Shown in pieces: positions 13,937-64,000 of a DNA stretch of 64,000 bases. Every line of letters starts with the position of its first letter. The first letter of the stretch is position 1. A program made the translations under genes and the position numbers. This DNA is from Dipteris shenzhenensis (taxonomy: Eukaryota): assembly GCA_047967505.1 (NCBI GenBank), contig CM106538.1; one strand, written 5' to 3'. The notes below the pieces were generated by a model. It was not told the origin of the DNA. It did no database searches and worked only from the letters and a program-made list of their open reading frames with translations.

Positions 13937-14854
13937 TTGACTACCGACTCAGAGTTATGACTACCAAATCCTCTCACGCAATCTGACTTGCATCCACCCT
14001 ACTATCACACGCGAGCCCACACTCTGTGAACTTCCAACACAAAGAACGGAACTATAAGGACCAAGTGCATAGGATAGGCCTATAGTCTTACTTGACAATC
14101 ACTCTGCCAATGTGTGCTAAGAATCAGCCCACAAACACAATTTCCAGCTAGCACACTACCCGAAAACATGCTCAAAACAGATCCCTCGGCTCAAGGAGCC
14201 TGACCAAAGATTATCCTTTCTCTTTTTCAACCATGGCCTTAAAAGCCTTGAAGTGGCTGAACACTTCACTTTTGTGCTTCATAAAGTAAACCCACATTTT
14301 CCTATTGTGATCATCAATAAAGCTCACATAGTAGTGGCATCCACCAATAGAAGCGGCTTTGCTTGTCCACACATATGAGTGGATCACTTCCAAAGCTCTT
14401 TTGCTCACCTCAGCATTTTGGGCAATGTATGTCTGGCCTACTTGCCCATTTGGCATGCTTCACATGCCTTTTGCATTCCATCAACGCTGAATTTAGGCAA
14501 ACCTGCAATAATGTTTTTCATTTGCATAGATTTCAGCCTTTGTATATTCATGTGCCCAATGCGCTTGTGCCATATCTCAATCTCTGCAATGACGCCTCTA
14601 CCACAGGCATATCTACATCCAAGGTAAACATCCTGTCATTTCTGTTTCCTTTGCCACCAAGCGGCACTGATTTTTCAAGTCCTCACAAAGCATCCATTGG
14701 GATTAAATCTAACTTGCAGGCCTTGCTCAACCATTTGGCCAACTGAAACCAGGTTCTTGGTGATATTTGAAACATGAAGTACATCTGCCAAGAACTTCAT
14801 TTTGCCATCTTACATACCCAGTAGCACTTTACCATCTTGTGTAATTGGATACAC
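13937..14854. repeat. direct repeat A (partner 33192-34109), includes a Copia GAG-pre-integrase/integrase fragment on the minus strand
   Basis: Collinear with 33192-34109 and shares the same non-Copia/Copia junction ctgaccaaagatta. Translates to LEVIHSYVW...YYVSFIDDHNRKMWVYFMKHKSEVF. Confidence 0.9.
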
Positions 14855-15673
14855 TGTCTCTTCAACATGGTTGCTCTTTGAATCTTGTTGCATCCTAATA
14901 TATGTGTACATTTGGTACAATCTCTCATATAATGCCCAGTGGCCCACACCTATTACAAACATTGAGGAGATTTTTAGTTGCAACATATTTCTCATTGACG
15001 AGGATCATTTGGTGGACCAAGCTGGGGATGTGATTGTTTGGGGATGAAAATGAAAGCGCAGGAAATTGTACTTCACGTTGGGGTTCTTGGAGGCTAGTTT
15101 CTTGTACTTTGACCATGATCATGTTTGTTGGATTGACATATATATGTGGGGATCATATGGATGCACCGATGGAGAGCTCACCTCCAAGCTACTCTTGTGG
15201 AGAATAATGTAGTGTGGGACGGCCACAAGTGTCACTCTTGCGGTCCTCGGATTGTCGCCGATGCAATTCCACAAGAAAAGAATGAGGAGGAAGAAGGGGG
15301 AGAGGGAGAGGAGATCATGATCATGGTGAATGGGGAAGGGGACATAGTCTTGGCAATCACAACGAGCATACAAATGAAGATACAAGTCCAAAGAAAATGG
15401 GAGGAAGAAAGCTTGAACTTGTATTCCTTGATGCAAAACCAACAATGAAGATTAAGTCAAAGGTCTTCCCTTATATACAACTCACCTTTTTAAGGGAGGG
15501 ATAACCCTAACTCATCCTACAACTCTCTTACTCACTTGTTTTTCTCTTTTGTCGAGCCTGCCTTGGTGAGGCTTCTTCTTTTAGCTAAAATCTAGCTATT
15601 TACAACTAAAATAATGTACAAAAATAATGTAGTGAGAAAGTAGTATACAAGTAGTGTTACATGCCCCCCTTCC
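14855..15673 (-). mobile_element. Gypsy (Athila-like) LTR with PPT and gag zinc-knuckle scrap
   Basis: On the minus strand PPT GGAAGGGGGGCA (15673-15662) precedes TGTAACAC at 15661. Similar to the LTR pieces at 59.6-61.1 kb. TGHYMRDC knuckle remnant at ~14910-14960. Confidence 0.65.
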
Positions 15674-16149
15674 TATTGGTGTTCCATCCATGGATCAAGG
15701 GAATTTCAAAATGGAGGAGGTAAGGGCTGCTTGCATGAAATTATCTAGTCTTTGAGAAACGTGGGAAAAAATGTGATGTGGAGGCCAAAAATGTGTATCA
15801 TGCATGTCTTCAAATGTCCGAATATGATGTGCATAAAGATTTTGAACACAAAGATACGTCTGAGATGATGACAAGACCTTGGTTTAGGTAATTACGTAAT
15901 CACATGTTTTTTTCACAGTATTTACACCAGTATTCACAATTTATCATAATCACGTGATTAAAATAGTATTACCACACCAGTGACCACTGACTTGTTCACC
16001 TGCAAAAGCCTGTCGGGATTCTGGCTTTTCTCATCGGGGCCCATTGGGCACTCGTAATTTCCCGACGGGGCCAGTTGGGGCCCACCAGGATACTTGGATA
16101 TCTCAGTGGGCCCCGATGGGGAAAGACAAAAGTCTGGTGTTTAAAACAA

Positions 16150-16620
16150 AGTTAGGTTTTGGCACTTGGTCGTTTGTTCGACCGTGTGTGTCATTACATG
16201 TTTGATCATCACTATGCGAAAGCTCATCACTTTGTCATTCACTCGACATTCATGTCGTCTTTCCTTTCATTGCATAGTCGTTCTCGTGCATATGCTCTTG
16301 TTTTCCATGAATGTGCATGTCATTCTTTATGTGCTTTAATACAAAAAATCCCATGTAATTTTGTTTCATCACTATGAGAGAGCTCGGCTCTTTGTTGTTC
16401 ACTCGGCATTCGTGTCATCTCTCATTGCATTGCATATTCTTTCTCATGCATATTTCAATTTTTGAATCACTAGGAATTTGCAAGTCATTATTTGTGTGCT
16501 TTAATATGAAAAAGGATGCCACATAATTTCATTTCATCATCACTATGCGAGAGCTTGACACTTTGCCATTCACTCATCATTCGTGTCATCTCTCATTGCA
16601 TTGCATATTCATTCTCGTGT
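16150..16620. repeat. subterminal-type tandem repeats (~165 bp x3), mirrored at 31620-32100
   Basis: Unit core tcatcactatg(c/a)ga(g/a)agct...cattc(g/a)tgtc(a/g)tct...cattgcata. Confidence 0.75.
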
Positions 16621-16779
16621 ATATTCACATGAAAAAGGATGCATGTCCAACTCTGTGGAGATGGGATTAGGGTTATGTGTGTTCTTTGATTGTGAGTTGA
16701 TGTATGCAAAATGACTACTACAGGTTTTCATTTCATAGTATGTGTCTTGTCTGATTGCGAGTTGCTTTGCTATGTAGAA

Positions 16780-18200
16780 TGTTTGCTCGAAATTATGATA
16801 AAAAGGAGAGAAAAGATGTGAGAATGCTCTTAGGAGAGAGTTAGTGAATGAGATCATGCACATGTTTCTAGTTGCTATTGAGGGCACGATATGTAATGCT
16901 ATGACTCTCGATGACTTTGTTCGAGCAATATTGAGTGCAACTAAAAGATGGCTGCAAGTAAAGGGAAATACACACCTTACTGAGCCAGCTCTGTGGTGCA
17001 TAGAAGTCGTTAAACACGTGCTTGAGCATGATTAGGAATATCGACAAGTGTGTCAGTGACAATGGAATGCTTGTGTCACAAGAAGATAGTGAAAGAATAA
17101 CACATTGGGATGCACAGTGGATAGAGGAGAAGCAAAGGAGGAAGAGGGAAAAGGATGTAGATACGCAACTCACATTAAGTAAGCATCAGAGAAAGGAACT
17201 AGTTGAAGGCACTAGAGGTGCTGATGTAGAAAAGAGTGCTACAAGGGTGACATGAGATGTAGGGGGGATTTCTCATATAGAACACACATCATGAAACCAT
17301 GAGTGCTTGGTGGTGATCGCCGTTTCGTACGATGCTATGCTGTGGCAAGAAAAGGTTGGGAAGGGATCATACGGTGCTTGTCACAAGGTCAAGTTTGTTG
17401 GAGTTCATTCTTTCCAAAACATGTGACATATTATGCAAAGAAGTACACTGCACGATCAATAGGGAAACAGTTTGAAGCCTTCGACATCGAGCAAGGAATG
17501 CAAAAAGGCCACCCTTGTCTCGTGCATTGCATAGCAAATGCAGGAGCAGCACCATGGGTGACACCATATTTCCTTTCTTTAATGGTGTACCTTAGGCCAG
17601 TTTATGATGCAACGACCTTTTTTGAAGGGTTCATTTAGGCATCATGAACTTAAACTAAGGCAACGAGGAATGATTCAAGAGACAAAGGAAAGATCTGGTG
17701 CTTGCAACCAAGGAGATGGCAAGGATGCAAGGATTGTTTACACATCTGACCTCGAGTCTATGTGCACTTGTAGATTTTATGGCCGTTGCACATAGTGTGG
17801 GAGTCATGCACTTTTATTTGCATGCACATAATATTGTTTTGGATTTATTATTGATTGGGGCCTTATGTTGAAGGCCGGTGAGTCCAAGCCAGCTACCAAT
17901 TTTGTGAGCAGAGTTCCCGGCATGACATCGATAGAGTACATGATGAGGAAGACTCAGGCAGTTCGAGGGAGTAAGTGGTTGAAAGAGTGGTTGGCCCCGG
18001 AGATTCTAGATCCTACATGCTTAAGTGAATATTCTAAAGGCTCGGATGTATATGCTCTCGGATGGCTCATCACTCAAATCATCACGTTTTGGAAAGAATG
18101 CATGTCTATTAATCTAAAGCAAGAATGGTGTGAGCATGACACTGATAGTCAGTCATGCGTCCATCTGCGGAGATGGGTCCGAGGTTGTGAACAAGGGAAT
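16780..18200 (+). pseudogene. apparently intronless atypical protein kinase (copy 1), decayed
   Basis: EKVGKGSYGACHKV (~17348-17390), YYAKKY, HPCLVHCIA, GVMHFYLHAHNIVLD (~17800-17845), frameshifted IDWG, WLAPEIL (~17990), SKGSDVYALGWLI. Kinase subdomains I-IX occur in order across frameshifts. Confidence 0.8.
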
Positions 18201-18489
18201 AATTTTTTTAATATGATGTTATTTGAAATGGTTATTGTTATTCCAAAGTGGAAAACTTGGTGAAACAATGCAATTAGCATCAACATGTGACATTGTATAT
18301 ACATTCATTATTCAATTGTTTTTCATCTGTAATATTTACACTTCTTCTCAAGTCTTTTCATAATTTTTTAAAGTTGTGTTTAAAACTTGAATTTTACACT
18401 TTTTTGTCATGTTGAAAAGCTAATTGCTGTAATCCTATGTCTGAAATTTAATGTGTTGTTTCTATGAATTTGTTTTTGCAAACATACAT

Positions 18490-18690
18490 AAAAATGACCC
18501 TTGAAAGGTCCTATTTAGGGGCAAGGGTCATCTTTACAAGCACTATAATTTCGAAGCACATAATTTAGATCATTTGTCCAAGCACGATAACTGGGGTCTT
18601 TTTGGCAAGCATGATAATTTAGAAGCACGATAGCTGGGATCTTTTTGGCAATCATGCTAATTTCTCAAGCACGATAACTAACGACAATAT
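18490..18690. repeat. small hairpin plus AAGCACGATAA motif array (mirrored at 29590-29750)
   Basis: atgacccttg...caagggtcat stem at ~18495-18530, followed by about 7 copies of aagcac(g/t)ata(a/g) variants. Confidence 0.7.
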
Positions 18691-18863
18691 TCGACCATAT
18701 TAGCGAGTAAGAAAAATTGTTATTATAACCTTACGTCATGAACACTGTCATGATGTGGTTTACTTTTATTTTGAATTTGAAGTTTAAACTTTTTACTTGT
18801 GATTCAAGCTTAATGTTTATTCAAATTTTTGGGGCAATTTAACAGTTCACCACACACATCCGC

Positions 18864-19958
18864 ATGGCTGAACAAGAAGAGCAAGAGCGCAACTTTTGAC
18901 AGGGGAAAGTGAGCATTGACAAGAGAGGAACAAGAGTAGGAGGAACTAGCAAAGGAGAGAGCTAGAAAGTCATTCGGATGTATGCATGTCTTAGCTTTGG
19001 GAATGGATGCTGAAGGGTCCAATCGGGTTGCATCTGGGACTAGCAAGTGGGCCAAAAGCATCCCTTTAGTGGAAGAAGGTAAATAAATAGATTTCTACTG
19101 ACAACATGCATATAGTATGGCCGGTGGCCATAAGCGAGGCATGAAAGGGGCGATGGAAGGTGGACAAGTGACTCTAGGAAGACATCGAGGCAAATGCCGA
19201 GAGGATATACCTCGAGGTGTTAGGACACCACCTACATCACTCTAACTATCCTTTAATCTTTGCCAAAATGCTATACATGCAATTTGTTCGGAGTCTGAAC
19301 ATGGACTTCTCTTCTAAGGAGGTCATCACTACTGTTCATGATATTAGAAGAGAGATAGTCATGTTCACTTGGGAAGAGTTGAATCTAGTGCTTAAAGGAG
19401 CTGCCTTGGAGCTAAAGGTTCACTCAAACTCCCTTCTAGAGAGATTGAGCCAACAAGATACAGAGGCAAAGAGGTGGCATGACTTCATGCAAACCCAAAA
19501 TGCCACCACATGCAATACACGCCGATGCAGCAAATGATGGCATGGAACGAATGGAGATTAGAAAACTCCAATAATTGGTGAAGAAACTTAGTGACTCATT
19601 AAAGTAACATGAGAACTCTATCAGTGTGAAGCACTTGAATAACATTGAACTTGTACTTGTCGAAGGCAGTTCAAATTTGTCATAGTGTCTTGTTTGCAAC
19701 CTAGTTTTTTAATAGTTGGTTGGGGCATTACAGCCTACCATGAGGGCATACTATCATCTCAAAAGCTTGATAAATCATTTGAAAAGAAGGGTTTCTTGTC
19801 CCATTTGTGTAATTCCATTGCCTCATACACTATACAAAGTATTCAGCTTGTAGAGGTATTATGATATGTTAACAGGAGCTGCAGCAAGTACTGGTAGTTT
19901 TATTCGCAATCTTTTTGAGAATTTTGAGGAAGGAAGTCACAATGAGCCTGCTCCATGA
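18864..19958 (+). pseudogene. coiled-coil + C-terminal RING-H2 protein (putative E3 ligase), copy 1, decayed
   Basis: MAEQEEQER start, helical FAKMLYMQFVR...MERMEIRKLQ region, then CLVC...SLP*GHxYHLKSL...VSCPIC at 19686-19810 across a frameshift. Confidence 0.65.
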
Positions 19959-20197
19959 CATTTGAAATTTTTTTAATGAATTGTAACACTTTTTATGATA
20001 TGCCAGCTAACAATATTATAACATTGACGAGGCAAATGTAAATACTCATTGACAAAGCAAATGTAAATATAAAGAGCTATCATATCCTTTATGAGTAAAT
20101 GTGCGTCTACATTTTTCACAAAATTTGAAAAAAGATAAGGTTTGTGCAACAATGTTTTCTAAATATTGATGTTTACTTGAGAGTAAGTTTATAACTT

Positions 20198-21630
20198 CTA
20201 TTCCTCTTCACTGTTGAATATTTCATCTATAACATTTACCAAAGAATCCCTTTCATTAACTTCCAATTCTAAATTGTCATCGATCTGTTGCTCTGTAACA
20301 ACTTCTCTTCATACCTCCACATCATCATCCAATTGGTCTTCAACGTGACAATCATAGGTCCATTGTGGTGCTTGTTCTTCATAATTATTAGACTCAACAT
20401 GTCACGAGATGCAATTATTGCAATACATATACACCAATTTCTTAGCTCGATTAGCCAACAATCAATTGTGAATAGTGCTATGCACGTACTTATATGTACT
20501 CCAGTTTCTCTCTGAACTAGAGTTTGAAGAGCATTGAGCAAGTACATGCATTTCCAAAGGCTTGAATAGTTTGCAGCTCGTACCATTCAACATCCACCAC
20601 TTCCACACCGGCATTTGTTTAGCCAACTTTTGTACAAAGGCATCACTAAATCTGCCCTCTTTCGATTGATATTTTGTGAACTTTGAAATGCACTGAGTAG
20701 CTTCATCCCTATTTGGGTATGCTCGGTCTTAGGATGCCAATTCCAATACTCAGGATCCAAAAGATACCCTACGTTGTGCAACAGATTATGTGCAGATACC
20801 CACCTTCAGTGAAAATATTTCAACAACAAATGACGTTTTCTCCTAGTGTATGGTACTCTCAATGTGGTCACAACTGAGTCTTTCAACTCTTCTGGCTCTT
20901 GCAGGCTCTGTTGTACACCCCACCAAGTCATCCATACCTTTTCCATTCAAGGCATTTTCGTGTTAAGCGCTTTGATAGCATACATCACAGGCATCATTAT
21001 ATGGTATGCATCTCCGACATTCTTCCAGAGCAAGTCCATGTCAACTATTATTTTCCACTGAGCACTCTTATTCCAAACACTTTCTTTTTGTACCTCTTCC
21101 CACCTTCTATAGAGAGTGCATGAGGATGTCTCCTTAATAGCATCTTTGTTTTTCAACAAAGCCTCAAGAACATAAAAGTGCATACAAAATCTTGTTCCAA
21201 CTGGTAGCGTTGACAAAAGATGTGAAGAACTCGTTGTCTATTAAGTATGAATTTATCTATCCTACAAGACTTATCAATAGGTTCTCTGAACCATTGCATG
21301 TCTTCACTCTTGTACCAATCCTGTAGAACTAAATTCAAACTGTGAGTATTACAAACAGTGGCATATATGTGCGGATAACTCCTTTGAATTATACTTTCAG
21401 CAGCTCTGCAATTTTTTGCATTATCCATCACCACCTGTATTACATGTGTTGCTCCCACACTATTGATAGCCAAAACGATGACTTATGCGATGTACCCACC
21501 CGTCTTTATTTGACTAGAGCTATCAGCTATTTGTAAGAAACATTCTCCATGAGGTGAAACAAGCATTATGTTTATAAGAGGCCGACGTTGCACATTTGAC
21601 CAACCATCACTCACAATTGTACATCATGAA
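20198..21630 (-). mobile_element. hAT transposase (DUF659 + dimerisation domain), 5'-truncated, copy 1
   Basis: CTIVSDGWSNVQRRPLINIML, VIQVVMDNAKNCRAA, CNTHSLNLVL, TRF, LHNVGYLLDPEY, QRNWSTYKYMHS, acidic tail. Multiple lesions. Confidence 0.9.
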
Positions 21631-21639
21631 AGATCAGAT

Positions 21640-21861
21640 GTTGATGGTCCGGTTACGCCAGTCCCAAGCGATGGGCATTATACAGGTATTCGATGTAGGC
21701 TTATTATAAGTGCTTGGATAAGTACTACTCGGTGCAACCATACGCCAACTTAGTTAACAGAAACACGTAGAGAATCGGGGTGTGCTAAATAAAGAAGATA
21801 GTAGGGATGAGGAGAAGGAGGTAGATACACAGTGAGGGAAAGCCACCTCGACTTTACCCAA

Positions 21862-21900
<39 letters not shown>

Positions 21901-22162
21901 ATGAACCCTCTTAATCACACAGGAAAGAAGCGATACAAAATAAAGGTAGAAACTGTCTCTTGTATTGAAGTTACTCAACAATAAGGGACAATGGTAACAT
22001 ACAACTCCACTATTGAATCTAGCGAACCCGCCTCCTTTCCTATGCTGTCTAAAATAGATGTGTACAAGAGGGCACCAATTTTGACCTTGGCGAAATCAGG
22101 GTGTGTAATTAACTCTAGATTTTACCAACTTTCCTAACCGCTTGCTTTTGAACTACTAACCT
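21640..22162. mobile_element. LTR-like fragment with (CT)n truncating the hAT gene (mirrored at 26046-26550)
   Basis: Non-coding segment abutting the transposase break in both arms. LTR identity is inferred from composition only. Confidence 0.4.
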
Positions 22163-23809
22163 CCTTTGCAATCAGTGGCTTTGCATAACTTCCTTTTCAT
22201 CACTTAATCACCTTGATTGCTGAAGTATTTAGCATGACAATATATTTTGTGTGTCTTGCATATTTCAAATTTAGTTATAAAATAAACATTATTGTACACT
22301 AACTTAAAACATATTTCGTTGCAAGGCTGAAATTGTTCTTTCAAAAACCAAACCCAAAACATACTTAAGTTTAATTATTATAATATCACTAAATAGAACC
22401 AATTTTGGAATTTATAAAGAAGCAACTTTTTATTTATTAGGAAATTGATACAAGATTTGTGAGGTATGCCTTCACAATAGAATCAATACAAATTTCAATG
22501 ACAAGTTGCTCTGAACAAAGACGCTACATATGATATACCCCAACCTGTTGAGTTCACTACTATTATACATATATCCCAGCCCATTGACAAGACTTCGCTA
22601 CCTCCAAAATTTGAGATTATGAGGACTCCACTATCTCTAGAATATGTATTTTGAAGTTGTTTGAACAATATTTCTTGATCTCATCTTAGAAATAGGTCAT
22701 AGAAGAGATGAAAAATACATAAAGAAAAGTGGCATGACTTATCTTACTCGAAGAAGATGTAAACAAAAGAAATAAAAGTGATGTGAAGAGCTTCAAACCT
22801 GATAAAATGTGCTATTAAAGATATAAGTTTGTGGAGGTGCTGCAACAATAATCTCTACAACAACAAACTCATCACCTCAAGAGAAGTCATGCAAAGAGAT
22901 AGGTCACAAAGGAGATAAAAAATACAAAAAACAAAGAGGCATGAGACCTCCAAACCTTTCTAGATGGACTCACATAGAAGATACGAAGTCGCCAAGGTAC
23001 CATAATCCTAAACCACTTCAATAGTGCTTGTAACAAGAGAGATGGAAGAGGAATCCCGAGAGAATAGAATACATCATCGAACAATGAGACATCAAATATT
23101 AATTTCATTAAAACATAATGGCACATTACAAGGAATACAATGCTTCTTTGTGATACTACATCATGGTACAATGAAACAGCCACAACAATAATCTTTGGAA
23201 CATTTAGTAGTCTTCATTTGTTGGTTTGACACAATGAGATAGAAATGGTTTGGCTCTAATGTTTTGTGCAATAAAGGCAGTATATCGTATTCTTTATTTA
23301 ATAGACACATATATGCTCTCCAAAAAGAGCTCTCTAGAAAGATTATTGGTATAGATGATTTGGATTACTTTTGACACAATAGTATGCAAAGGCTCTCCAA
23401 CATTTTTCTCCCGACATAAATAGACACATAAATAGACACAAAAAATTTTGCTTTGAGGATCTATATAATATAAGTGATGATTCATTGGAAAAGACTGTAA
23501 GGAACTCGGGAGGTGAGAAAGTATCGGATGCCTAAATCACAGCAACCATTCAGTTAGATGCAAGACAAAAGATTGAGACTAAGCAAAGACTTATGTGAAA
23601 GTAAGTAGAGATTCTATTATTTGCTTTCATATTCTAGTCGATCCTCTTTTGCATCATGGTACTTGTTTATGTATAACACTACATTCAGAAGTTTTGGACT
23701 CGAGTTAAGTCGAATTTAAGAATTGGACCAAACAAAATTCCAAATTTTTGAATACCATAGTAGAATGGTTTTGTTCCTCTTGCTTTCAAAACAAATATTA
23801 TTGACAGGC

Positions 23810-25709
23810 TAGGACATGATGGGTATACATCACAACACTATGCCTATAGGGTCAAGGTTCTATAGGAACAAGAGCCCACATGCTTTGAGGATGTAGTAGG
23901 CCATAAACATTGGGAAGTAGCGATGGATGAAGAGGTGGCTACCATGGATGCAAACCACACTTGGGATTTGATGCCTTTGCTTCATGATAAGAAGGCTATT
24001 GGCTACAAGTGGCTTTACAAAGTAAAGCACAATGTTGATGTACCTGTGAGTAGGTACAAGGAATGATTGGTTGCTAAGGGTTTTGCACAAACATATGGAA
24101 TTGATTATGAGGAAACCTTTAGCCTGGTTACAATGATGGAAACTGTGTGAGAAGTAATTGCTATGGTTTCTGCAAAAGGATGGTCTTTACATCAGATGGA
24201 TGTGAAGAATGCTTTCTTGCATGGTGATTTTCAAGAAGAGGTGTATATGGTGCAACCACAAGGCTATGAGGATGATGCACATCCAAATTTTGTATGCAAG
24301 TTGTGCAAAGCCTTGTATGGCCTATATCAGGTGTCCATGGCATGGTCGGACAAGATTTTTCACTTTATGTGAACAGGAAAAACATGGGGATTGTGCTTGT
24401 AGTCATCTATGTTGATTAATTGATTATTATAGGTGATAGTGATGTAGACATCAGTGAAGTGAAGCTACTTTTGAGCAAAAATTTGAGATGAAGGATTTGG
24501 GAGAGCTGCATTACTTCTTGGGCATTGAGGTTATTAGATCCCCTAGTGGGATATGGCTATTGCAAAGGCAATATGTCTTGGACATCCTGTCCAAATATGG
24601 GATGACAGGATGTAAGCTATTTCTATTCCATTGGAGCAGAATGTGAATCTTAGTGTAGAGGCATGTGAGCTTCTTGAGGATATTACTATGTACAAGTGCA
24701 TAGTAGATAGCTTGATTTACATGACTATCACTAGACCAGATTTGAGCTATGTTGTGGGGTTGGTAAGCCGGTTTATGTAGGCACCAAGGAAGCCACATTT
24801 GGATGCAGCTAGATGCATACTGCAGTATGTGAAGTCCACATTGCATTATGGACTATTTTATGAAGCTGGGTGTTAGTTATAGGTACATGGGTACACAGTT
24901 GCTAGCTGTGATGGTAGTGTCTCAGACAGGAGACCTACTAGCGGTTTTACGTTTTCCCTTGGGAGTGTTGCAGTAAGTTGGAGCAGCAAGAAGCAAAAAA
25001 CAATTGCCTTGTCGAGCAGAGAGGCTGAGTATAGGGGTGCATCTATGGTTGCATGTCACGAGGTAGCTTGGTTACAAAAGCTTCTTGCAGATATGGTGGG
25101 CAGTCAGTACATGGAGCAATTGTCATTTATTGTGACAACATTAGGAGCATTATGCTTGCTAATAACCTAGTTTATCATGCTAGGACAAAGCACATTGAGG
25201 TTCATTATCACTTTGTAGGGAGAAGGTTCTAGCAAATGACATTGATCTAAGTGTGTATGTGAGCACTGAGGAGCACGTGGATGATATTTTGATGACGGAA
25301 TTGGGTACATAGAAGTTTTGTAGATTTAGCAGTTTTGTTGGTGTACTCGAGATGGATTTGAGATTGGGTGGGAGTGTTGAAATATCAAGCTCAACCCTCG
25401 ATGTATCTCCAAGGTGACTATCATTTATGTCATCACCTTTGTTGGTTGTACTTGTGGTGTAGTTAGACTACCACATATGTTTTGTTTTAGGTTCACATAT
25501 TAACCACGTATTCTAGGGAGACATTAGGTTCTACAATTTCTCTCCCTGTCCGAGTGCCCTATACCCCTCTCCTATTGTATTTTTGTTGTGTACTATCTTT
25601 AAGTAAGTGAAGATAAGCTTCAGCCTGCACATCTTGTGTCCTCTCTCTCTTGTGTGTGTTTTGAAGAAGCTGCAAGTGAGTCTCCTCCATCTCTCCCGCA
25701 ATCTTTACA
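23810..25709 (+). mobile_element. Ty1/Copia 3' half (RT-RNaseH-PPT-3' LTR), decayed
   Basis: [45 protein letters not shown] ~25366-25374. LTR 25375-25709 TG..CA, same family as the LTRs at 35.7, 52.2 and 58.4 kb. Confidence 0.92.
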
Positions 25710-26551
25710 CATGTTGGTGCCCTTATGATGTTGGGAATTAGCATGGGGATAAATTCTCTCCCTCACAATGAAATTATTGTCTAAAAATCTTACAATGGGT
25801 TTAGTGCCTTTGATAGTGTGCTAGACAAAAGTGTATGTGACGGCGGGATGTTTACTACAATGACATGTGAGCCTATGTGTGTTAACCCTTGCACTTAGTG
25901 AGATATATCTTCTCCCCCTCAAGACCCCCAGTAGGTTGGGAGGTTTCTTTAGGTTGGTTTGTGTTGACCCCAGGGTTAACCTGTGCTTTGAGGTTAAACT
26001 CGAGTCTACCTACCGGTTTCCCAAGATCACTAGGCAAGGAGAGATAGGTTAGTAGTTCAAAAGCAAGCGGTTAGGAAAGTTGGTAAAATCTAGAGTTAAT
26101 TATGCACCCTGATTTTGCTAAGGTCAGAATTGGTACCCTCTTGTACACATCTATTTAAGACGGCATAGGAAAGGAGGTGGGTTCGGCAGATTCAATAGTG
26201 GAGTTGTATGTTACCATTGTCCCTTATTGTTGAGTAACTTAAATACAAAAGATGATTTCTACCTCTATTTTGTATCGCTTCTTTCCTGTGTGATTAAGAG
26301 GGTTCATCATCATCTCAAGAGAGAGAGAGGGTTTGGGTAAAGCCGAGGTGACTTTCCCTCACTTTGTATCTACCTCCTTCTCCTCGTCTCTACTGTCTTC
26401 TTTATTTAGCAAACCCCGATTCTCTGCGTGTTTCTATTAACTAAGCTGGCGTATGGTTGCACCCAGTAGTACTTATCTGAGCACTTACAATAAGCCTACA
26501 TCAAATACCTATATCATGCCCATCGCTCGGGACTGACATAACCGGACCAAT

Positions 26552-50400: not shown

Positions 50401-53056
50401 TTTGATAGACTTCATACAATTGCGTGATTGGGCTCCACTTATGACTGCTTGGGAAAAATCCCACAATAAAAGCTCTTTTTATGACAGTGAAGGTGATTAG
50501 CTTGGCAGGGCTAAGGGCTCTGTACCAGTGCCCTGCTTTGCTTTCCATGGTGAGTCCAAATGCTCCCACCTTGGTAAGATCATCAAGATCTCCAAAGGTG
50601 GTATATACTTGCTCAAAATTGCTCTACATGGAAGATCAGATCACCTTCCCTGAGTATTTTCGCACCAGCTTTGCAACATTATGCGGTCTAACTTTAAGGA
50701 CGGGTTCTCTGTGGGGATGGGAGGCAGTCGCTCCCCAACCTAAGGCTTCTACTAGTAGGGTAGATAATACATCGATGGGAGATCATAAGATGACAATGGA
50801 TCCCCAAGTCCTGGGTAACCATACCCTAGAGGTGGTGGAACACCTCGTTGGTCTTAGTGGTGGGGATACTGGCATGTGCAATGGTATTGTTGTATGCACC
50901 AGTTGCAAGCTTGGTTCTACCGGGTTTGGGTACCTAGTAATTGGTGAGGGTCTTGGTCCCACTGGAATGTACATCGGAGCTATGGTCCCAAGACTCGGAC
51001 CACTAACTAATGTACCTAGTACATGGACTGATGTGGGTCCTTGATCTCTAATCAATGAGGGGACAATTGTGGGAGGAGGGATTGGAGCTCTCAACCCCAT
51101 TGATTGGGATTGAGTGGCATCATCCTCATTATCCTTTGGAATATCTCCCAAGAATGGCTCTAAATATGGTGAAGGTTGATAAGGGATTTCCACCCCTGGG
51201 TTGGTTCCGTGGAGGTCGTAGGGTAATGAACACCCTAGTAGTATGTACCTCGGTATTGCGTACCATCCTCATGATCTCCTAAGTTTTGGCATGGGGGGAT
51301 GTATGCACTCCATAGATTGTGTTGTGGGCCCAACATGTGGAAATGGTGTATGGGTGCCCTTGGCACTTGTCTGGGTGGAGGGTTCCATGAGGTTCCCTCA
51401 CCGGATGTTCTGTTGTATTTGGCCGCAGGGTTGAATGTTGATAAGTGGGGTTCATAGGCCATGTCTTGGGCTGACTGCACCTCATGAGCCTCTTGATCTC
51501 TTTGTAGAGTTGCTATGTAGGTAGGATGATCAGCCGGTGGTTGCGCTACATCTACGAGGTTTGGTCTGACTGAGCTTTCAAAGGCATTTACAAACTCTGG
51601 CATGGGGGCCTTGGTCTTGGTTCTTCTCGACCCTGGTATAAACATGCTTCCCATTCCTGTTGATGGGGTGGGTGACGCTGCAGCCATTGGAGTCCATGTT
51701 GGCTTTGATGCAAGCTGCATGTCAGTGGCAAAGATCATAGATTTTTCAGGTTGAGAGCTTTTGCTTGTGTCTATCCACTGACTCGAGTATGACTCGAACT
51801 CAGGGTATGACCTGAGTTGCGAGCTTCCTACGATGTATATGGTGAAGCTCGGGGTATGACTAGATAAGCTAGGGGTGGGTGATGCACTTGCTTCATCTTC
51901 TATATCTGGTCCCATCAGTCGTCCTGACCTCAATCGCATGTGGCGAGTGGAGTGCTAGGGATACATGATACAAGAGGACTAAGTCCTCTTGTCCCTTTGT
52001 GGGAACTTGGCGATTTTGTCTAAGTATTTGAAAACCTAGAAAATTTTGCCAGAGGTTCGATGCAAAATGAGCTCCTCAAGGGAAGCTCAATGAGACTCTA
52101 GGGGTTAGTGGCTCGTGAGATTGCAGTTGGACAAGCTGGGGCAAAACTCCGAATGTCAGTAAAAATCAATGTCAAATAGGCAAATAGGAACTGGATGTTG
52201 AGATATCAAGCTCTAGCCCCGATATATCTCTTGGGTGACTATCATTTATGTCACTGTCTATGTTGGTTGTACTCATGGTGTAGTTAGACTGCCACATATG
52301 TTTTTAGTTTGGGTTCACATATGAACCACATATTCTAGGGTTTGATATATAGGGTATAAACCTCTTCTATTGTAGAGTTGTGTGCTATTTTCAACTAAGT
52401 GAAGATAAGCTTTAGCCTCCACATCTTGTGTCTCCTCTCTTGTGTATGTTGTGAAGAAGCTGCAATCGAGTCTCCTCCCTCTCTCCCGCATTCTTTACAT
52501 GGTATCAAAGCTTGGTTCGTGGTGAGGAGCTCAAGCACCAAGTAGAGGTCGCGATACCTTGGTAAGAGGATCTGCGCCTCCTTTCATTTTGGATGTTAGG
52601 GAGCATATCTCTGTAGGTACACAGCTGTGAGTGCAAGGTGCACTATCACTGACTCTGATGCCCCATGGTGTGAAGCTTGGGTGCATTACCCTAAGAAAAA
52701 CAAATTGCAAAGCAGAGAATGACGCATCGAAATCGCGGTTCAGGGCCGTTTCGGGGTCCGTTTTGGCATCGCAAAGTTTCCGTCGGCACTCAGGAGAAGT
52801 GGCCATTTTTTGATTGTGTATGTCGTATTTTCGCCTATGTGATTTTTGACAGAGAGGCTGCTGTGTGACACCAATGCAGAGATCCTGAGAAACACAGGCC
52901 AGTTTGGGTTGCTGTGTTTATGCATATTCGTCACTTGAAGTGACTTATGGTTGCTTGCCACTGCCCCTGTGAGGCTATTTGCAGAAGCTTTGTTGTTTGC
53001 CCTTATGAGGTATTTGCTGTGTTTACAGGTTGCTGTTGCAGTTCGTGATTTGTAAA

Positions 53057-54105
53057 ATGTCTAAGAATCTGTCTACCATTGTCAGTGAGAAGCTTGACAA
53101 GAACAACTTCCAAGCATGGAAGTTCAGGATGACAAACTTCTTTATGGGAAAGGGAGTTTGGGAGTACATCAGTGGTGAAACTGCAGAACCAGTCTTGGGT
53201 GCTGCTTCCACTCCTGCTGAATTGAAGGCCTTTAAAGAATGGCATGAAAAAGCCAGGAAATGCTTGTATTGGTTGTTTGTCAGCATTTCAGATTCTATGA
53301 TTGTGCATGTACAGGATGTAGAGATGCCTAAGGAGGCATGGGATACATTGGTGAAGCTGTATAGCACAAATACCAATGCACGAAAGATGTAGCTCAAGTA
53401 GGAGTTGCACAATGTGCAAAGGAAAAATCTGAATATAAATGAGTATTCCTTGAAGGTAAAAGGCCTTGCAGATTCTCTTGGCTCCATTGGAGCACCTGTT
53501 GATGATGAGGACTATGTGTCTGTGACCTTGAATGGTCTTGGGAAGGATTATGCACAGTTTCGGACATCCATTGGAGTCCGTGAAACATTTCCTGATTTTC
53601 AGGAACTTATTGCTCTCTTGCTAAGTGAAGAGCAAAGGAATGGTTGTTCAGCCACCTCAACTTCCCAAGAGTCTGCTTTCTACTTGAATATAGGTAGAGG
53701 CAGGGGTAGAGGAAGAGGCCATTTTGGTGGCCGCACAGGAAATTAGAACCAGCATCAACAACAGGAAAACCAGTTCTATGGAGGAGGATGTGGTAGTTCT
53801 AGAGGCAGGGGGAGCCAAAGAGGCCGTGGTTCATGGCAAAGGAACTAGCAAGTAAATAGTAGCACGGAATGCTATTATTGTGGAAAGCTTGGACACAAGG
53901 AGAATACATGCTATAAAAAGTAGAATGACATCAGAAGTGGGAAGTTGCAGCAAAGCAACTATGCATCATCAAGCGGGCATGGTGATGACAGAAATGAGCA
54001 CCTTTTTGTGATGCAGCATATGGTTAACTCCCTGACAGGAGATGCTGTAGCTTGCAATGATGTTTGGTATGTTGATTCAGGTGCCTCTAACCACATGACC
54101 AGTCA
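53057..54105 (+). pseudogene. Copia gag + protease start
   Basis: MSKNLSTIVSEKLDKNNFQAWKF, LNGLGKDY, CYYCGKLGHKENTC knuckle, WYVDSGASNHMT. Several TAG stops. Confidence 0.9.
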
Positions 54106-57100
54106 TATAGTGTAGATTAGGATAGCTGTCATCTAGCTATTATTCATGGGCGGTGTACCAACCGCATCTGTAGCTAACAAGTCGGTGACATAAATGCACA
54201 ACGGTCACCCTGGCATATCGCGAGTGGAGCTCGATATCTCAAAACTCCCCCTCGAGCTCAATCCCAATTCCTGCACACCAAGCAGGTCTCTGAACTTGCG
54301 CAGCTTCTCTGTGCCCAGTGCCTTCGTGAATATGTCAGCTACCTAATCCTCTGTGCTGACATAAACTAGATCAATAAGACCTAGTAAAACCTTCTCCTGC
54401 ACATAGTGATAATGCACCTCAATGTGCTTTGTTCTAGCATGATAGACTGGGTTATTTGCCAAGTGTATACTGCTCATGTTGTCACAATAAATGACAACCG
54501 GCCCATCTGTAGACTGATGCATATCATAGAGTAGCTTATGCAACCAAGCTACCTCACATGCAGCCATTGCTGCACCCCTGTACTCAGCCTCTGTGCTCGA
54601 CAAGGCAACTGTAGGCTGTTTCTTACTGCTCCAAGTGACTGCAACACTCCCAAAAGAGAACACATATCCACTGGTAGATCGTCTATCAGAAATACTACCA
54701 GCCCAATCAGCATCAGTGTATCCATGCAACTATATCTGAACCCGAGCCTCATAAAATAGTCCATACTGCAATGTGGACTTCACATACCTGAGTATGCATC
54801 TAGCCGCATCCAAATGCAGTTTCCTTGGAGCCTGCATAAACTGACTTACCAACCCAACAGCATAGCTCAAATCTGGCCTGGTAATAGTCATGTAAATCAA
54901 ACTTCCTACTATGTGTCTGTACATAGTAGGGTCTTCCAGAAGCTCACCTGCATCTGCGCTCAGCTTCACATTCTGCTCCAAAGGAACTGAAATAGGCTTA
55001 CAGCCTGTCATCCCATATTTGGACAGCATGTCCAGTCCATACTGCCTCTGCAAGAGCTGTATCCCACTTGGTGATCTAATCACCTCAATGCCCAAGAAAT
55101 AATGCAGCTCTCCCAAATCCTTCATCTCAAACTTCTGCCTCAATAGCATTTTCACATGAAGGATATCTTCATCACTATCACCTGTGATGATCAAATCATC
55201 AACATAAATGACAAGCAGCATAATCCCTTTCTCTGTTTTTCTCACATAGAGTGAGAAATCTGCCTTGGAAATCTGAAAGCCAATAGTGACAAGATACTGT
55301 CCTATCTTGTCAGACCATGCTCTAGGTGCTTGCTTCAAGCCATACAAGGCTTTCTTCAATCTGCAAACAAACTCAGGATGAATAGCATGAACATAACCTG
55401 CTCGGGGGGGTCACTCATCATATGTAACCCTATCACGTGAGTTCAACAAAAGGATATTTTTTATTTCTAAAATTTACAGAAATAAATATACATAAGGGAC
55501 TATTTAAAATAGTTTTGGAAAAAATTTACAGATTTGTATAGAAAGGGGTACATTTTATTAATGAAAAATTTACACAGATAAGGGATTTTAGAAATATGCC
55601 TTGAACGCACGTGGTATAGAGGGTTTATACATAGTGACCCCCCTGAGATAACCTGCTGGCTGCTCCATAAAGACCTCTTCTTGCAAATCTCTTGTAAATC
55701 ACCATGCAAGAAGGCATTCTTTACATCCATCTGATGTAAAGACCATCCCTTTGATGCAGCCATAGCAATGGCTGCTCTTACAGTTTCCATCCTTGCAACC
55801 AGGCTGAAAGTTTCTTCATAATCAATGCCATATGTCTGTGCATACCCCTTGACAACTAATCTTGCCTTGTATCTATTCACAGAACCATCTGCATTGTGCT
55901 TGATCTTATAAACCCACTTACAGCCAATTGCATTCTTGTCTTTAGGCAAAGGCACCAATTCCCATGTAGCATTTGCATCCAAGGCATCCATTTCTTCATC
56001 CATGGCTTTCTCCCATTTTTCATTTCCCATGGCTTGCTCAAAAGAAGTGGGTTCTGGTTCCTGTATCACTTTGACCATATAGGCATAGTGAATGGCTGTA
56101 AATCCATCATATTTCAGCCTATCCACAGGATACCTAACCCTGGTAGACCTGCGCAAAATAGGCTCACTTCCAGGTACTCTCAAAACATCCCTGGTCTTCC
56201 TTACTCCAGGTGTAACAACAGAAGGAATACCCAACTTATCATCAATGCTCTGCTCTGAGCCACTGGATTCACCATCCACATAAGAGTGACCTGCATTCAC
56301 ATCAAACATGGGCTGATCTACCTTCTCTTTCCCTTTTTGTGATACCTGTGTACCACTATCTGCATTGCTTTGAGGAGATTCTCCTGATCTCAATCTACCT
56401 GTCCATGGCGAAGTATGTGAACCACTACTAGAGGACACTGTAGGTCCACTGATATTTTGTGATTGCTGCTGTGAATTTTGTGCAGCATTACCATATTGTG
56501 CATCTACATCAATCATTACATCTACTGGTTTATACCAGCTACTCATCTCATAAAAAAAACATCTCTGCTCACTGTGAACTTACGTGTAGAAGGGTTATAG
56601 CATCTATACCCTTTCTGCTACAGAGAATAACCAATAAAGATGCACTTCTCAGCCTTTGGATCCAACTTGGACCTCAACTCATCTGGCACATGAACATAGG
56701 CAATGCAACCAAAAATTTTCAAATGAGAAATGTCTGGTTTCCTACCAGTATACATCTCCTCTGGCATCATGCCATGTATTGCTACAGTGGGAGTCCTGTT
56801 CATTATATAAACTGTTGTAGCAACTGCTTCAGCCCAATAATAATCTAGTAGATCTTTTTCATTTAGCATGGCCCGAGATACCTCTCCAATATGCCTGTTT
56901 TTCCTTTCTGCAATTCCATTTTGCTGTGGGGTATGACTGCATGAATATTGCTGCTTTATGCCATGCTCCTACAAGAACCTTGCAAACTCATTTGAGAGGT
57001 ACTCTCCCCCTCCATCTGACCTTAGGCATTTTATTTATAGGCCTGTTTCTTTTTCAACCATAGCTTTAAAAGCTTTGAAGTGCCCAAACACTTCACTTTT

Positions 57101-58035
57101 CTTTTTCATAAAATACACCCAAAGTTTTCTACTGAAGTCATCAATAAATGTGACAAAATAGTGACAGCCTCCAATAGATGCAGCTTTAGTAGTCCACACA
57201 TCAGAGTGGATTAATTCCAATGGCTTTTTACTCTCTTGAACATGCTTAGGAAATGGTTTCCTTGCTTGTTTTCCAAATTGATAGGCTTCACACACCTTAT
57301 GCATTTCTACAACCTTGAATTTAGGCAATCTTGCAACAATATTTTGGGCCTGCATTGATTTAAGTCGCTGTACATTAACATGACCAATGCATTTATGCCA
57401 CATATCAATATCTACAACTACACCGGTCCCATGTGCAAACATTGCTGCACTCAATTCAGCATGTCCGCATCTTGTGTAAACATCCTGCCTTTCTTCTTTC
57501 CTTTTGCTATCAAGCGACCATTATTTTTCATATCCTCAACAAAGCATCCATGAGGATTGAATCTGACCTGCAAGCCCTGCTCAACCATTTGACCAACAGA
57601 AACCAGGTTCTTGGTGATGTTCGGGACATAAAATACATCAGACAAGTATTTCTTTTTCCCATCCTACATAGACAAAGGAATTTTGCCAATCTGCACAATA
57701 GGATGTGCAGTATCATCACCAGTCTCCACAAATCCTGGTTTTTCCATTTTCCTTGCATCTGGCATCCATTCAGCATGACCTGTCATGTGGTTTGACGCAC
57801 TTGAGTCAACATACCACACATCATTGCTCTCTTCTGCACTTGTCACAGAATTTGCCATATGCTGTACCATAAACAAATGCTCATTTCTGTCATCACCCTG
57901 TCTACTAGAGGATGCATAATTGCCTTGCTGCAATTTTCCATTCATAATGTCATTCTGCTTTTTGTAGCAGTCTTTAGCCATATGCCCCATTTTACCACAG
58001 TAGTAGCATTCAACATTGCTGTTTGCATTTTGGCC
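54106..58035 (-). mobile_element. inverted Copia (sister family): knuckle-PR-INT-RT-RNaseH-PPT-partial LTR
   Basis: [74 protein letters not shown] 54253-54245. LTR piece 54244-54106 differs from the host LTR. Confidence 0.93.
55401..55647. mobile_element. 247-bp MITE, copy 3, inserted in Copia RT
   Basis: TIRs CTCGGGGGGGTCACT / AGTGACCCCCCTGAG. 8-bp TSD ATAACCTG at 55393-55400 and 55648-55655. Confidence 0.95.
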
Positions 58036-58039
58036 TCTC

Positions 58040-58214
58040 TACGTATTCTAGGGTTTGACATATAGGGTATACCCCTTTTCTATTGTAGTGTTGTTGTGTG
58101 CTATTTTCAACTAAGTGAAGATAAGCTTCAGCCTCCACACATCGTGTCTCCTCTCTTGTGTATGTTATGAAGAAGCTACAATCGAGTCTCCTCCCTCTCT
58201 CCCGCATTCTTTAC
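58040..58214 (+). mobile_element. extra half-LTR of the host Copia family
   Basis: Matches the 3' half of LTR 52196-52499, ends ttctttaca, and is fused to RNaseH-coding caaagcacattgag. Confidence 0.88.
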
Positions 58215-58709
58215 ACAAAGCACATTGAGGTGCATTATCACTTTGTGAGGGAGAAGGTTCTAGCTGGTGAGATTGATCTTGTTTATGTCAGCATTGAGGA
58301 GCAGGTGGCTGATATTTTTACAAAGGCCTTGGGTACCGAGAAGCTTCACAGATTTAGGAGCTTGCTTGGTGTACTTGAGATGGATTTGAGCTTGAGGGGG
58401 AGTGTTGAGATATCAAGCTCTAGCCCCGATATATCTCCTAGGTGACTATCATTTATGTCACCATCTATGTTGATTGTACTCGTGGTGTAGTTAGACTGCC
58501 ACGTATGTTTTTGGTTTGGGTTCACATATGAACCATGTATTCTATGGTTTGACATATAAGGTATAACCCTCTTCTATTGTAGAGTTGTTGTGTGATATTT
58601 TCAACTAAGTGAAGATAAGCTTCAGCCTCCACATCTTGTGTCTCCTTTCTTGTGTATGTTGTGAAGAAGCTGCAATCGAGTCTCCTCCCTCTCCCCCGCA
58701 TTCTTTACA

Positions 58710-58881
58710 CTGGAAAAGTAGGAAAAATTCAAAAAAACAAATAGGCAAATAGGAACTGGAAAAGTAGGAAAAATCAATGTCAAATAGGCAAATAGGAACT
58801 TCGAATGTCAGTAAAAATCAATGTCAAATAGGAAAAGTAGGAACTGGAAAAGTAGGAAAAATTCATGGGGATCTATCAACA
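58710..58881. repeat. A-rich tandem motifs continuing 52150-52195 (probable Gypsy LTR/leader)
   Basis: aaaatcaatgtcaaataggcaaataggaactgga units on both sides of the Copia. Minus-strand TGTTGA start at 58881. Confidence 0.6.
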
Positions 58882-62834: not shown

Positions 62835-64000
62835 TGAGAGTGCTCTCAACGGAAGCAAGAACGGAAGAGGGAGAGAGAGAAACAGAGAGCCACACAAGTT
62901 TTGGTGGGTGCAGAACCACCCTAATCTTCTTTTTCATTCATTTATATATGTGTTTGAGTATTGTACATAACCGGGGTTAAGGCACAGTGACCTTTAACCC
63001 CCACAACCTCCCACTTAAAGGACAATGTGCCTTTAAGGGAGAATAACTAGTGAGCGTACTATCCAATGCCCATCAATACACGACAATACTCAAACCGCTG
63101 ACTAGGTAGACTCTTCTCAGCATATCTGCAGGGTTATCATCTGTATGAACCTTGACAAGCTCTATGCTCTTGTCCTCAAGTACCTCCCTGATGAAATGGT
63201 ACCTGACCTCAATGTGTTTGGTCTTTGCATGAAAGACCGGATTCCGTGCTAGCTGAATAGCACTCATGGAATCACTATGCAATGTTGGTACACCTGTATG
63301 AATCCCCAAATCTCCCACTAGCCGATCAAGCCATATAGCCTCCTTGCAACCCTCTGTGGCTGCAACATACTCAGCCTCTGTGGTAGACAAAGCCACGCAC
63401 TTCTGTGCACGAGACATCCACAACACGGCACCACCTGCAAAGGTGAACACATAACCAGAAGTGGATCTCCTACTATCCACATGCCCTGCATAGTTTGAAT
63501 TATTGTACCCAAGTACACGCATGTCTCCTTTACCAAAGCAAATGCACATCTCCTTGGTACCCTTCATGTACCTCATGATGCACTTAACTGCCTCCCAATG
63601 CCTCTTTCCTGGATTAACCATATACCTGCTAACAACTCCCACTGCAAATGCAATGTCTGGTCTAGTAGCTATCATAGCATACATAAGACTCCCAACCGCT
63701 GATGCATAAGGAACCTTAGCCATCATGGCCCTCTCCTCTTCTGATTTGGGACTATCTGTATGACTCAGTTTCACATATGGAGGCAATGGAGTACTCACTG
63801 CCTTCCCCCCCTCCATATTGAAATGCTGCAATACTTTTGTAACATACTCTTTTTGTGAAAGCCAAAGGAGTTTCCTACTCCGATCACGCATGATGCGCAT
63901 ACCAAGAATATGACCTGCAAGTCCCAAATCCTTCATATCAAAGGCCTCATGCAACTTGGCCTTTAATGCATCTAGCTCATAAGTATTCTTGCTAGCCAAT
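62835..64000 (-). mobile_element. Ty1/Copia 3' end (RT-RNaseH-PPT-short LTR), runs off the window
   Basis: ORF 63999-63073: FDMKDLG, YASAVGSLMY, TRPDI, ALSTTEAEY, KHIEVRYHFIRE. PPT 63017-63006. LTR 63005-62835 TG..CA. Confidence 0.92.

Follow-up and report, generated by a model that had tools for sequence, protein, structure and literature searches.

Two broken copies of a divergent kinase-like gene in an inverted duplication of Dipteris shenzhenensis

What was the gene whose remains lie twice, on opposite strands, in a stretch of 64,000 nucleotides from Dipteris shenzhenensis (assembly GCA_047967505.1, contig CM106538.1), and how did it come to be there twice? Throughout, we call the whole stretch the window. 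The remains resemble a protein kinase, with a catalytic loop of the form H-x-D-L-H-x-x-N and a DWG motif in the place of DFG. The original prediction, made from the letters alone, took them for a kinase that a transposable element had carried or that had been acquired horizontally. We consider it probable that the locus instead holds a dead gene of a small, divergent and unnamed kinase family, present twice through a local inverted duplication that followed the death of the gene.

The two copies and their lesions

Copy 1 occupies 17337..18263 on the + strand. It begins with the first in-frame ATG that follows a stop at 17292-17294, closes with the stop whose last base is 18263, and is read in four frame segments. 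Five overlapping stop-to-stop frames of the region 17295-18263 (+) jointly make up a colinear kinase domain, their pieces reading, in order, ..MLWQEKVGKGSYGA.., ..YYAKK..HPCLVHCIA.., ..GTLGQFMM.., ..AVAHSVGVMHFYLHAHNIVLD and IIDWGLMLKAG..WLAPEIL..GSDVYALGWLITQI.. (the last two out of frame with each other). Copy 2 lies on the - strand at about 30052..30901. Its mirror-image reading frames span about 30052-30943, and its N-terminal lobe (N-lobe) is readable in a single frame (30641-30943).

All the motifs named in the original prediction are present in both copies, and their retention is complementary. Copy 1 keeps the glycine-rich loop (G-loop) GKGSYG (17358-17375) and, in the C-terminal lobe (C-lobe), WLAPE (17988-18002) and DVYALGW (18045-18065); its catalytic loop is mutated to HFYLHAHN (17809-17832), with the catalytic Asp gone. 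Copy 2 keeps HYDLHAHN (30405-30428) and has the altered forms GKGSYD (30863-30880), WLAPK (30235-30249) and DVYALRW (30172-30192). IDWG is readable in both, as IIDWG in copy 1 (17847-17861) and as FIDWG in copy 2 (30376-30390). The putative beta3 Lys falls within YAKK (17432-17443 in copy 1), which sits 19 residues 3' of the G-loop in both copies, and is assigned by position alone. Compared with the Pfam family PF00069 (Pkinase), the locus thus has the GxGxxG loop and a candidate for the beta3 Lys. The region from DFG to subdomains IX and XI is represented by DWG, which retains Asp and Gly, by WLAPE and DVYALGW, and by a C-terminal RP in the relatives described below. The HRDLKxxN consensus is replaced by HYDLHAHN or HFYLHAHN, in which the Arg is absent and a His stands for the Lys.

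In both copies the frame of the G-loop opens after the upstream stop, which lies 45 nt before the first ATG, and no transmembrane or ectodomain part was seen upstream. The positions of this stop and of the first ATG imply that the ancestral product was probably a bare kinase domain. The region 5' of the gene (16802-17255), where the sole Pfam match was to DDT (16.9 bits, under the cut-off), was excluded from the gene because the stop at 17292-17294 separates it from the kinase frame. The ancestor would have been an intronless gene encoding a stand-alone kinase domain of ~310-320 residues, an estimate that adds the deleted codons to the span from ATG to stop. A processed (retro-copied) pseudogene was considered and rejected: the lack of introns fits, yet no 3' poly-A tract was found, there being no run of >=7 A within about 900 nt downstream of either copy.

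Lesions were mapped by a frameshift-aware alignment to the open reading frame (ORF) of L001, a relative from a metagenome collection, and by aligning the DNA of the two copies with each other. Three lesions are common to both copies. The first consists of 2 extra nt at about 17561-17566 (copy 1) and 30671 (copy 2), between ..PWVT and IFPFFN. The second is a net +1 shift near 17700-17720 and 30517-30531, whose exact site is only bracketed. The third is the loss of ~10 codons (about 28-31 nt), with a change of frame, between NIVLD and IIDWG, at the junction of 17846 and 17847 in copy 1 and at about 30390 in copy 2. With it goes the strand that leads from the catalytic loop to DWG, where the relatives have 10 residues, and NIVLD and IDWG lie in different frames in each copy, with the short spacing that the original prediction had described. 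Since both copies show the same ~10-codon loss, the deletion is older than the duplication, as had also been proposed. The further claim, that the kinase could be reconstructed from the two copies, stands only as regards the complementary motifs. Two additional frame breaks turned out to be common to both copies, and because all three are common, the two copies combined still yield no whole open frame.

Other lesions are private to one copy. Copy 1 has 1-nt deletions at 17403/17404 and 17586/17587 and lost its catalytic Asp by substitution, and copy 2 has a 1-nt deletion at 30441, a premature stop at 30141 and substitutions in three motifs (G-loop, APE and DVYALG). The coding segments of the two copies differ by 55 substitutions, distributed 20/19/16 over the three codon positions. 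Of these, 14 are synonymous and 41 non-synonymous; the synonymous share is 0.255, as against the 0.269 expected without selection under the observed transition bias. The pattern is one of neutral drift since the duplication, and neither copy in the window is able to encode a kinase now.

One might ask if the gene is in fact intact and functional, the frameshifts being errors of sequencing or of the assembly consensus. The three private frame breaks are single-base indels, and contigs of related organisms differ from the window at two of the break sites. Such contigs, from the runs of four related organisms (X1, X2, X3 and X7), cover the arm of the duplication at roughly 90-95% likeness. In every one of the four runs, at least one contig lacks the 2 extra nt at 17561 and carries a G following 17586, a form that makes up about half of the local depth in X1 and X3. 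A record of 2350 nt from X7 has 751 letters for window positions 17405-18126 (722 nt), i.e., 29 more, and a record of 806 nt from X2 has 375 letters for 17633-17978 (346 nt), again 29 more. In X3, two records cease to align at 17846 and leave 34 and 23 letters unmatched. The 35 gaps (net +29) of the X7 record can be explained by 31 additional letters where the window has its deletion, one letter fewer at the +1 site, and the differences at 17561 and 17586 just described, an arrangement that, by arithmetic on the alignment summary, would restore one frame. The contigs of the relatives therefore seem to be without several of the lesions, so that an intact orthologue may exist. A search of sequencing runs listed no RNA run for the gene, and the best DNA run contained 0.17 of the query's words. 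For the window itself, we regard an artefact as highly improbable. The ~10-codon loss and the 2-nt insertion occur in both diverged copies, the catalytic Asp is substituted in copy 1, and copy 2 is interrupted by a stop and carries substitutions in three of its motifs. Moreover, the substitution pattern is neutral, and X1 and X3 show the form of the window in about half of the depth at 17561.

A small family of divergent kinases

The nature of the gene emerges from its relatives. With tblastn, the 278-residue ORF of L001 matched each copy in three frames, with summed E-values of 4.9e-24 (copy 1) and 4.6e-23 (copy 2), a likeness far above chance that argues for homology of both copies to a kinase-like ORF; family proteins matched both copies too. 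A 143-residue piece of the C-lobe was also searched with phmmer against 1,835,955,588 cluster representatives, which gave 14 matches at E<=0.001. The unusual motifs occur in ten of these, all short ORFs (81-232 residues). The other four, long multi-kinase proteins, match only locally; two belong to Rhizoctonia solani and one to an oomycete, and the fourth is unnamed. A profile search added four short family members. An earlier protein search with the 143-residue piece, over a longer length range, returned 22 candidates, none significant, and a profile search of proteins of 407-2000 residues returned 7425 candidates, none at E<=1e-5, which is weak evidence against recorded longer or fused forms. 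Lastly, a scan of the metagenome collection gave 82 pattern matches, of which one was confirmed. This is L001, a locus of 1.2 kb with flanks too short to give context, whose stop-to-stop ORF covers the domain from helix C as far as the C-terminus; upstream of helix C it is frame-broken, in a stretch that may include the beta3 region.

The members with a named source come from a fern, Adiantum capillus-veneris (KAI5054163.1), and from a clubmoss, Diphasiastrum complanatum (KAJ7548332.1 and KAJ7547121.1/KAJ7547141.1), and all are annotated merely as 'hypothetical protein'. The remaining members are ORFs from ENA, Logan and JGI (among P0001-P0020), plus L001. Diphasiastrum complanatum has at least three annotated family loci (P0019, P0021), spread over two chromosomes. 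The loci 08G070000 and 08G071500, which share a chromosome, encode an identical protein of 188 residues, and the family has therefore undergone recent local duplication in Diphasiastrum too.

Family members present their motifs in the order ..AH..G(I/V).HCDLH..N(I/V).LDFT......(V/I)G(I/V)IDWG(L/M).., RPW(L/M)APE, (A/V)(S/V)DVYALG(W/Y) and C-terminal RP. The window copies have the same motifs in the same order, at ~30-40% identity, and differ from the family members in being frameshifted and ~10 codons short before DWG; with L001 they also share the stretch EQGMQ..HP..V.CIA...PW.TIFPFFNGG.LG. The catalytic loop of the family, H-(C/N/T/Y)-D-L-H-x-x-N, is non-RD and has a His at the position of the Ser/Thr-kinase Lys. 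DWG stands for DFG, and a long activation segment ends in RPW(L/M)APE. Because the relatives share both HxDLHxxN and DWG, these are family characters and no products of decay. The loop of the family keeps its Asp and its Asn and is a variant without loss of catalytic residues. The original prediction was therefore right that this is no decayed ordinary receptor-like kinase (RLK) of the HRDLK/DFG type, the two motifs being conserved in a distinct small family. We found no mention of an H-x-D-L-H/DWG family in the literature on fern transposon-encoded kinases or in searches with the motif strings, and as far as these searches reach the family has been neither named nor described.

Sixteen members were scanned with Pfam profiles. 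Half of them exceeded the Pkinase cut-off of 31.7 bits (P0017, 67.8; P0021, 64.4; P0019, 59.0; P0002, 44.3; L001, 41.4; P0004, 38.9; P0013, 35.9; P0007, 34.4). The kinase assignment of the window copies comes from these relatives, because the pieces of the copies themselves are sub-threshold. Four of the 16 also exceeded the cut-off of APH (PF01636; 23.2 bits), namely P0017 (34.5), P0021 (26.3), P0013 (24.8) and P0019 (24.2). An identity as APH or other small-molecule kinase was rejected, as these matches amount to 19.5-34.5 bits over 30-50 residues, versus 24-68 bits for Pkinase in the same proteins. In the Atlas features, the best clusters have Pkinase in 85-100% of their members, and the top three score 0.97-0.98.

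The predicted structure agrees. An AF2 (AlphaFold2) model of the L001 ORF, made with an alignment of 17 sequences, has a mean predicted local distance difference test score (pLDDT) of 66 and a predicted template modelling score (pTM) of 0.70, the first 67 residues and a few loops being poor. It matches kinase domains with Z up to 9.7. The best Foldseek matches were EphA2, BRAF and RIPK1 (E 3e-4 to 1e-3). The VIA fold search ranked IRAK4, BIK1, LYR4, SOBIR1, a rice RLK, LYK3, RIPK, a cacao kinase, CRAF, IRE1, RIP1 and MLKL, with top Z of 9.7-8.8, root-mean-square deviations of 2.8-4.2 A over 132-152 residues and 13-21% identity, all tied within 1 Z. Of the top nine VIA matches, six are domains of plant RLK or receptor-like cytoplasmic kinases (RLCK), and the other three places of this tied group (Z 9.0-9.7) include IRAK4 and a RIPK from yeast; RAF, IRE1, RIPK1 and MLKL come next (Z 8.8-9.0). 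Sequence searches of solved structures returned RSK2, CK2alpha, CDK8, EGFR and an apicomplexan MAPK (E 1e-9 to 1e-7). The motifs W-x-APE and DVY/W-S/A-x-G are typical of tyrosine kinases (TK) and tyrosine kinase-like kinases (TKL). The family is a divergent eukaryotic protein kinase with TK/TKL-like features in the C-lobe. By sequence it matches no single known group, and it could not be assigned to one.

Would such a kinase work? Most members preserve the G-loop, a candidate for the Lys, the Asp and the Asn of the catalytic loop, the Mg-binding Asp within DWG, and APE. The ancestor was therefore probably competent in catalysis, and most likely an active phosphotransferase. Being non-RD, it would not have depended in the usual way on phosphorylation of the activation loop, and, by analogy with CK2alpha, the DWG Trp may have held its activation segment in the active state.

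Did the family enter the seed-free vascular plants from a virus, a fungus or a bacterium? Its catalytic loop and IDW resemble those of Pfam APH, hence the four members above that cut-off, and the nearest matches outside the family include the multi-kinase proteins of Rhizoctonia solani and of the oomycete. The gene is intronless, and the named members come from two taxa only. The outside matches are weak and local, however, with 35-55 bits over up to 4 repeated domains, and none of the 14 phmmer matches bears a bacterial or viral name (six are named, all eukaryotic or 'hypothetical protein'). A pattern-limited scan of 2.9 million viral contigs gave 20 pattern matches and confirmed no relative. 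Six plant RLK/RLCK domains are among the top nine fold matches, and the identity of the fern and clubmoss members to L001 (26-41%) is equally compatible with old vertical descent. Such an entry is in our judgement quite improbable.

Duplication and the case for a mobile element

Why are there two copies of the kinase? Comparison of the window with itself revealed an inverted segmental duplication, and the kinase is there twice because the two copies lie in its two arms. The left arm (14855..22162, +) spans 7.3 kb and the right arm (26046..32839, -) is 91.1-94.3% identical to it, with a unique spacer between them (22163..26045). One stretch of the left arm (15437-16138) is absent from the right arm. 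The edges of the arms are sharp on all four sides, the flanks differ, and no terminal inverted repeats (TIR) were found at the edges. Each arm also holds the remnant of a hAT transposase, on the strand opposite to the kinase and 2 kb off. In the left arm this decayed gene (20269..22095, -) retains DUF659 (21153-21482, 60.8 bits) and the hAT dimerisation domain (20462-20728, 19-20 bits); in the right arm, Pfam found the dimerisation domain of the mirror copy at 27378-27761 (+).

Pieces of Copia elements surround the arms. A Copia-internal fragment with GAG-pre-integrase (13937..14854, -; seen by Pfam and by self-comparison) adjoins the left arm, and a direct repeat of it (918 bp, 93% identical) lies beyond the right arm at 33192-34109. 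The spacer carries the 3' half of a Copia in opposite orientation, with a fragment of reverse transcriptase (RT) and RNase H (about 23800-25226, +) and a piece resembling a long terminal repeat (LTR; 25185-25710). This layout points to a complex rearrangement (inversion-duplication) involving a Copia element. For the order of repeat, arm, Copia half, arm and repeat, we considered an inversion-duplication with one break inside the Copia.

In the history that we propose, the ancestor would have belonged to a small, very divergent and unnamed family of protein kinases. The gene took three frame-breaking lesions (the 2-nt insertion, the net +1 shift and the ~28-31-nt deletion). Next, an inverted duplication doubled the 7.3-kb segment that contains the kinase and the hAT transposase remnant, and both copies have since drifted neutrally and gained their private lesions.

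The alternative is that the kinase travelled in, or was captured by, a transposable element (the neighbouring hAT or some other one without obvious ends), the two copies then being two insertions. The transposase remnant in each kinase arm (DUF659 60.8 bits, dimerisation domain 19.8 bits), the sharp edges at both ends of the arms and the absence of introns over the whole length of the gene would fit. So would the fragmentary state of all database members, the joining of a JmjN-like piece to the kinase C-lobe in P0007, and motifs like AAGCACNATAA that recur, by eye only, near 18535-18650. The arms nevertheless lack terminal inverted repeats at their edges. A strict scan (target-site duplication, TSD, 8/8; TIR >=12/14) found no bracket of 8-bp TSD and TIR round the kinase, although decay could hide old ends. 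A relaxed scan (TSD >=7/8, TIR >=11/14) gave two matches per arm, none common to both arms, where chance would give ~0.5 matches per scan by a hand estimate with no shuffle control. Further, the transposase lies on the other strand, 2 kb from the kinase, and the direct Copia repeats and the Copia half of the spacer better fit a complex rearrangement.

Contig depth in the four related organisms tells the same way. The summed depth is 6-57 in the kinase bins, similar to that of single contigs. Over the adjacent Copia piece it is 1e4-2e5 in three of the runs, with a bin that reaches 1.7e5-2.2e5, and in X2 it is about 600 (596). Within the hAT remnant, 20321-20621 and 21224-21825 reach 1e3-3e3 and are the only raised pieces; the transposase core therefore belongs to a repeated family, unlike the remainder of the arm. 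Because the depth of contigs does not equal copy number, this coarse contrast is weak evidence. Taken together, we hold carriage by an element to be unlikely. A broader form of the idea is that these kinases are a stand-alone clade in ferns and clubmosses that spreads with mobile elements, or otherwise horizontally, in company with hAT-like elements lacking recognisable ends. It would explain the intronless fragments, the mosaic member and the small number of named members, and we give it a rather low probability too. The transposon-borne or horizontal origin put forward in the original prediction is thus not borne out, given that the scans found no reproducible TIR/TSD bracket, that the pattern-limited scan of viral contigs confirmed no relative, and that contig depth in four related organisms is low.

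Several observations sit uneasily with a dead family gene duplicated by local rearrangement, which is still the reading that we prefer. A simple inverted duplication leaves the direct 918-bp Copia repeats unexplained. Only one of the 11 window pieces matches Pfam Pkinase at all, and its 18.7 bits fall short of the required 31.7. Every family member seen is incomplete or broken, the longest in the databases having 232 residues and none exceeding 407, and the N-lobe, with its G-loop and Lys, is known just from the two window copies. The sequence neighbours (RSK2, CK2, CDK8, EGFR) and the fold neighbours (TKL/RLK) disagree, and no group is singled out. Finally, P0007 (175 residues, from an unnamed ENA contig of 733 bp) combines a JmjN-like N-terminus (22.8 bits, E 8e-5, below the cut-off) with a kinase C-lobe, and reads as a chimera or mosaic of the type made by transposon gene capture.

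Within the arms, other features accompany the kinase. Upstream of it, both arms have a diverged tandem repeat with a unit of ~160 bp and 77-82% identity between units (16199-16625, mirrored at 31625-32045). Downstream, at 18520-18820, the recurring AAGCACNATAA-like motifs, seen by eye only, could mark the subterminal repeats of an old DNA transposon. Copy 1 also has a short local duplication there (18533-18650 versus 18651-18820), both parts of which match 29453-29620. The longest open frame of the arms is found ~900 nt downstream of the kinase and on its strand, at 19178-19537 (+, 119 residues) and, in the mirror, at 28620-29039 (-, 139 residues). Pfam has no family for either form, and an Atlas search with the 139-residue one gave a top score of 0.89 and no family assignment.

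The window at large is eukaryotic and plant-like, with ~34-48% G+C, many reading frames of Copia and other LTR retrotransposons and the hAT transposase remnant. A proline-rich stretch at 37684-38294 is open in three + frames and one - frame, and is followed by ~1 kb of degenerate TA/CA-rich repeats with a period of 8-14 bp (38265-39320, reported as 51 overlapping copies). At 44973-45473, six overlapping open frames of 115-163 residues, on both strands, lie over an inverted repeat (44998-45147 versus 45392-45241, 93%). More LTR-retrotransposon bodies, judged by eye, occupy 45976-51954 (-), 52196-58713 and 63073-63999 (-); they include one long - strand polyprotein that looks Gypsy-like and Copia copies with frames for RT, RNase H and integrase.

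Significance and known systems

The locus itself is of little import, being a dead gene duplicated by a local rearrangement. Its by-product, of modest use, is a family, present in at least one fern and at least one clubmoss, that joins three oddities: a non-RD loop in which His takes the place of the phosphate-contacting Lys, a DWG like that of CK2, and an extended activation segment. Should there be intact members that are expressed, they would form a lineage-specific branch of plant kinomes, and a natural test, outside CK2, of DWG combined with the His of the loop.

The locus resembles the gene fragments taken up by Pack-type elements and Helitrons in having a broken, host-like gene next to a transposase in more than one copy, and one family member is a mosaic ORF. 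Unlike such captures, the locus shows no element ends that we could find, the whole domain is colinear and contig depth in the related organisms is low. The TKL kinases (IRAK4, BIK1, SOBIR1, LYK3, RAF and RIPK1) are the best matches in fold, whereas the family is without their HRD(L/I)K and DFG. APH-like phosphotransferases, and haspin too, typically have a His where the catalytic loop of Ser/Thr kinases has its Lys. With the APH-like proteins the family shares H-x-D-L-H-x-x-N followed by I-D-W, which fits positions 164-198 of Pfam APH; unlike them, it has the APE, the DVYALG and the C-terminal RP of eukaryotic protein kinases. CK2alpha, finally, also has DWG for DFG, and matches in sequence around IDWGL with E of 2e-7 to 1e-5. 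The match is local, from the catalytic loop to DWG (about positions 10-83 or 54-163 of the query), and the 50 best fold matches listed for the L001 model include no CK2. According to PMC9608649, the Trp of the CK2alpha DWG makes an extra hydrogen bond that disfavours the inactive DFG-out state, consistent with constitutive activity. Where the catalytic loop of CK2alpha has a Lys, that of the family has a His, and the W-x-APE and DVYALG of the family are of the TK/TKL type.

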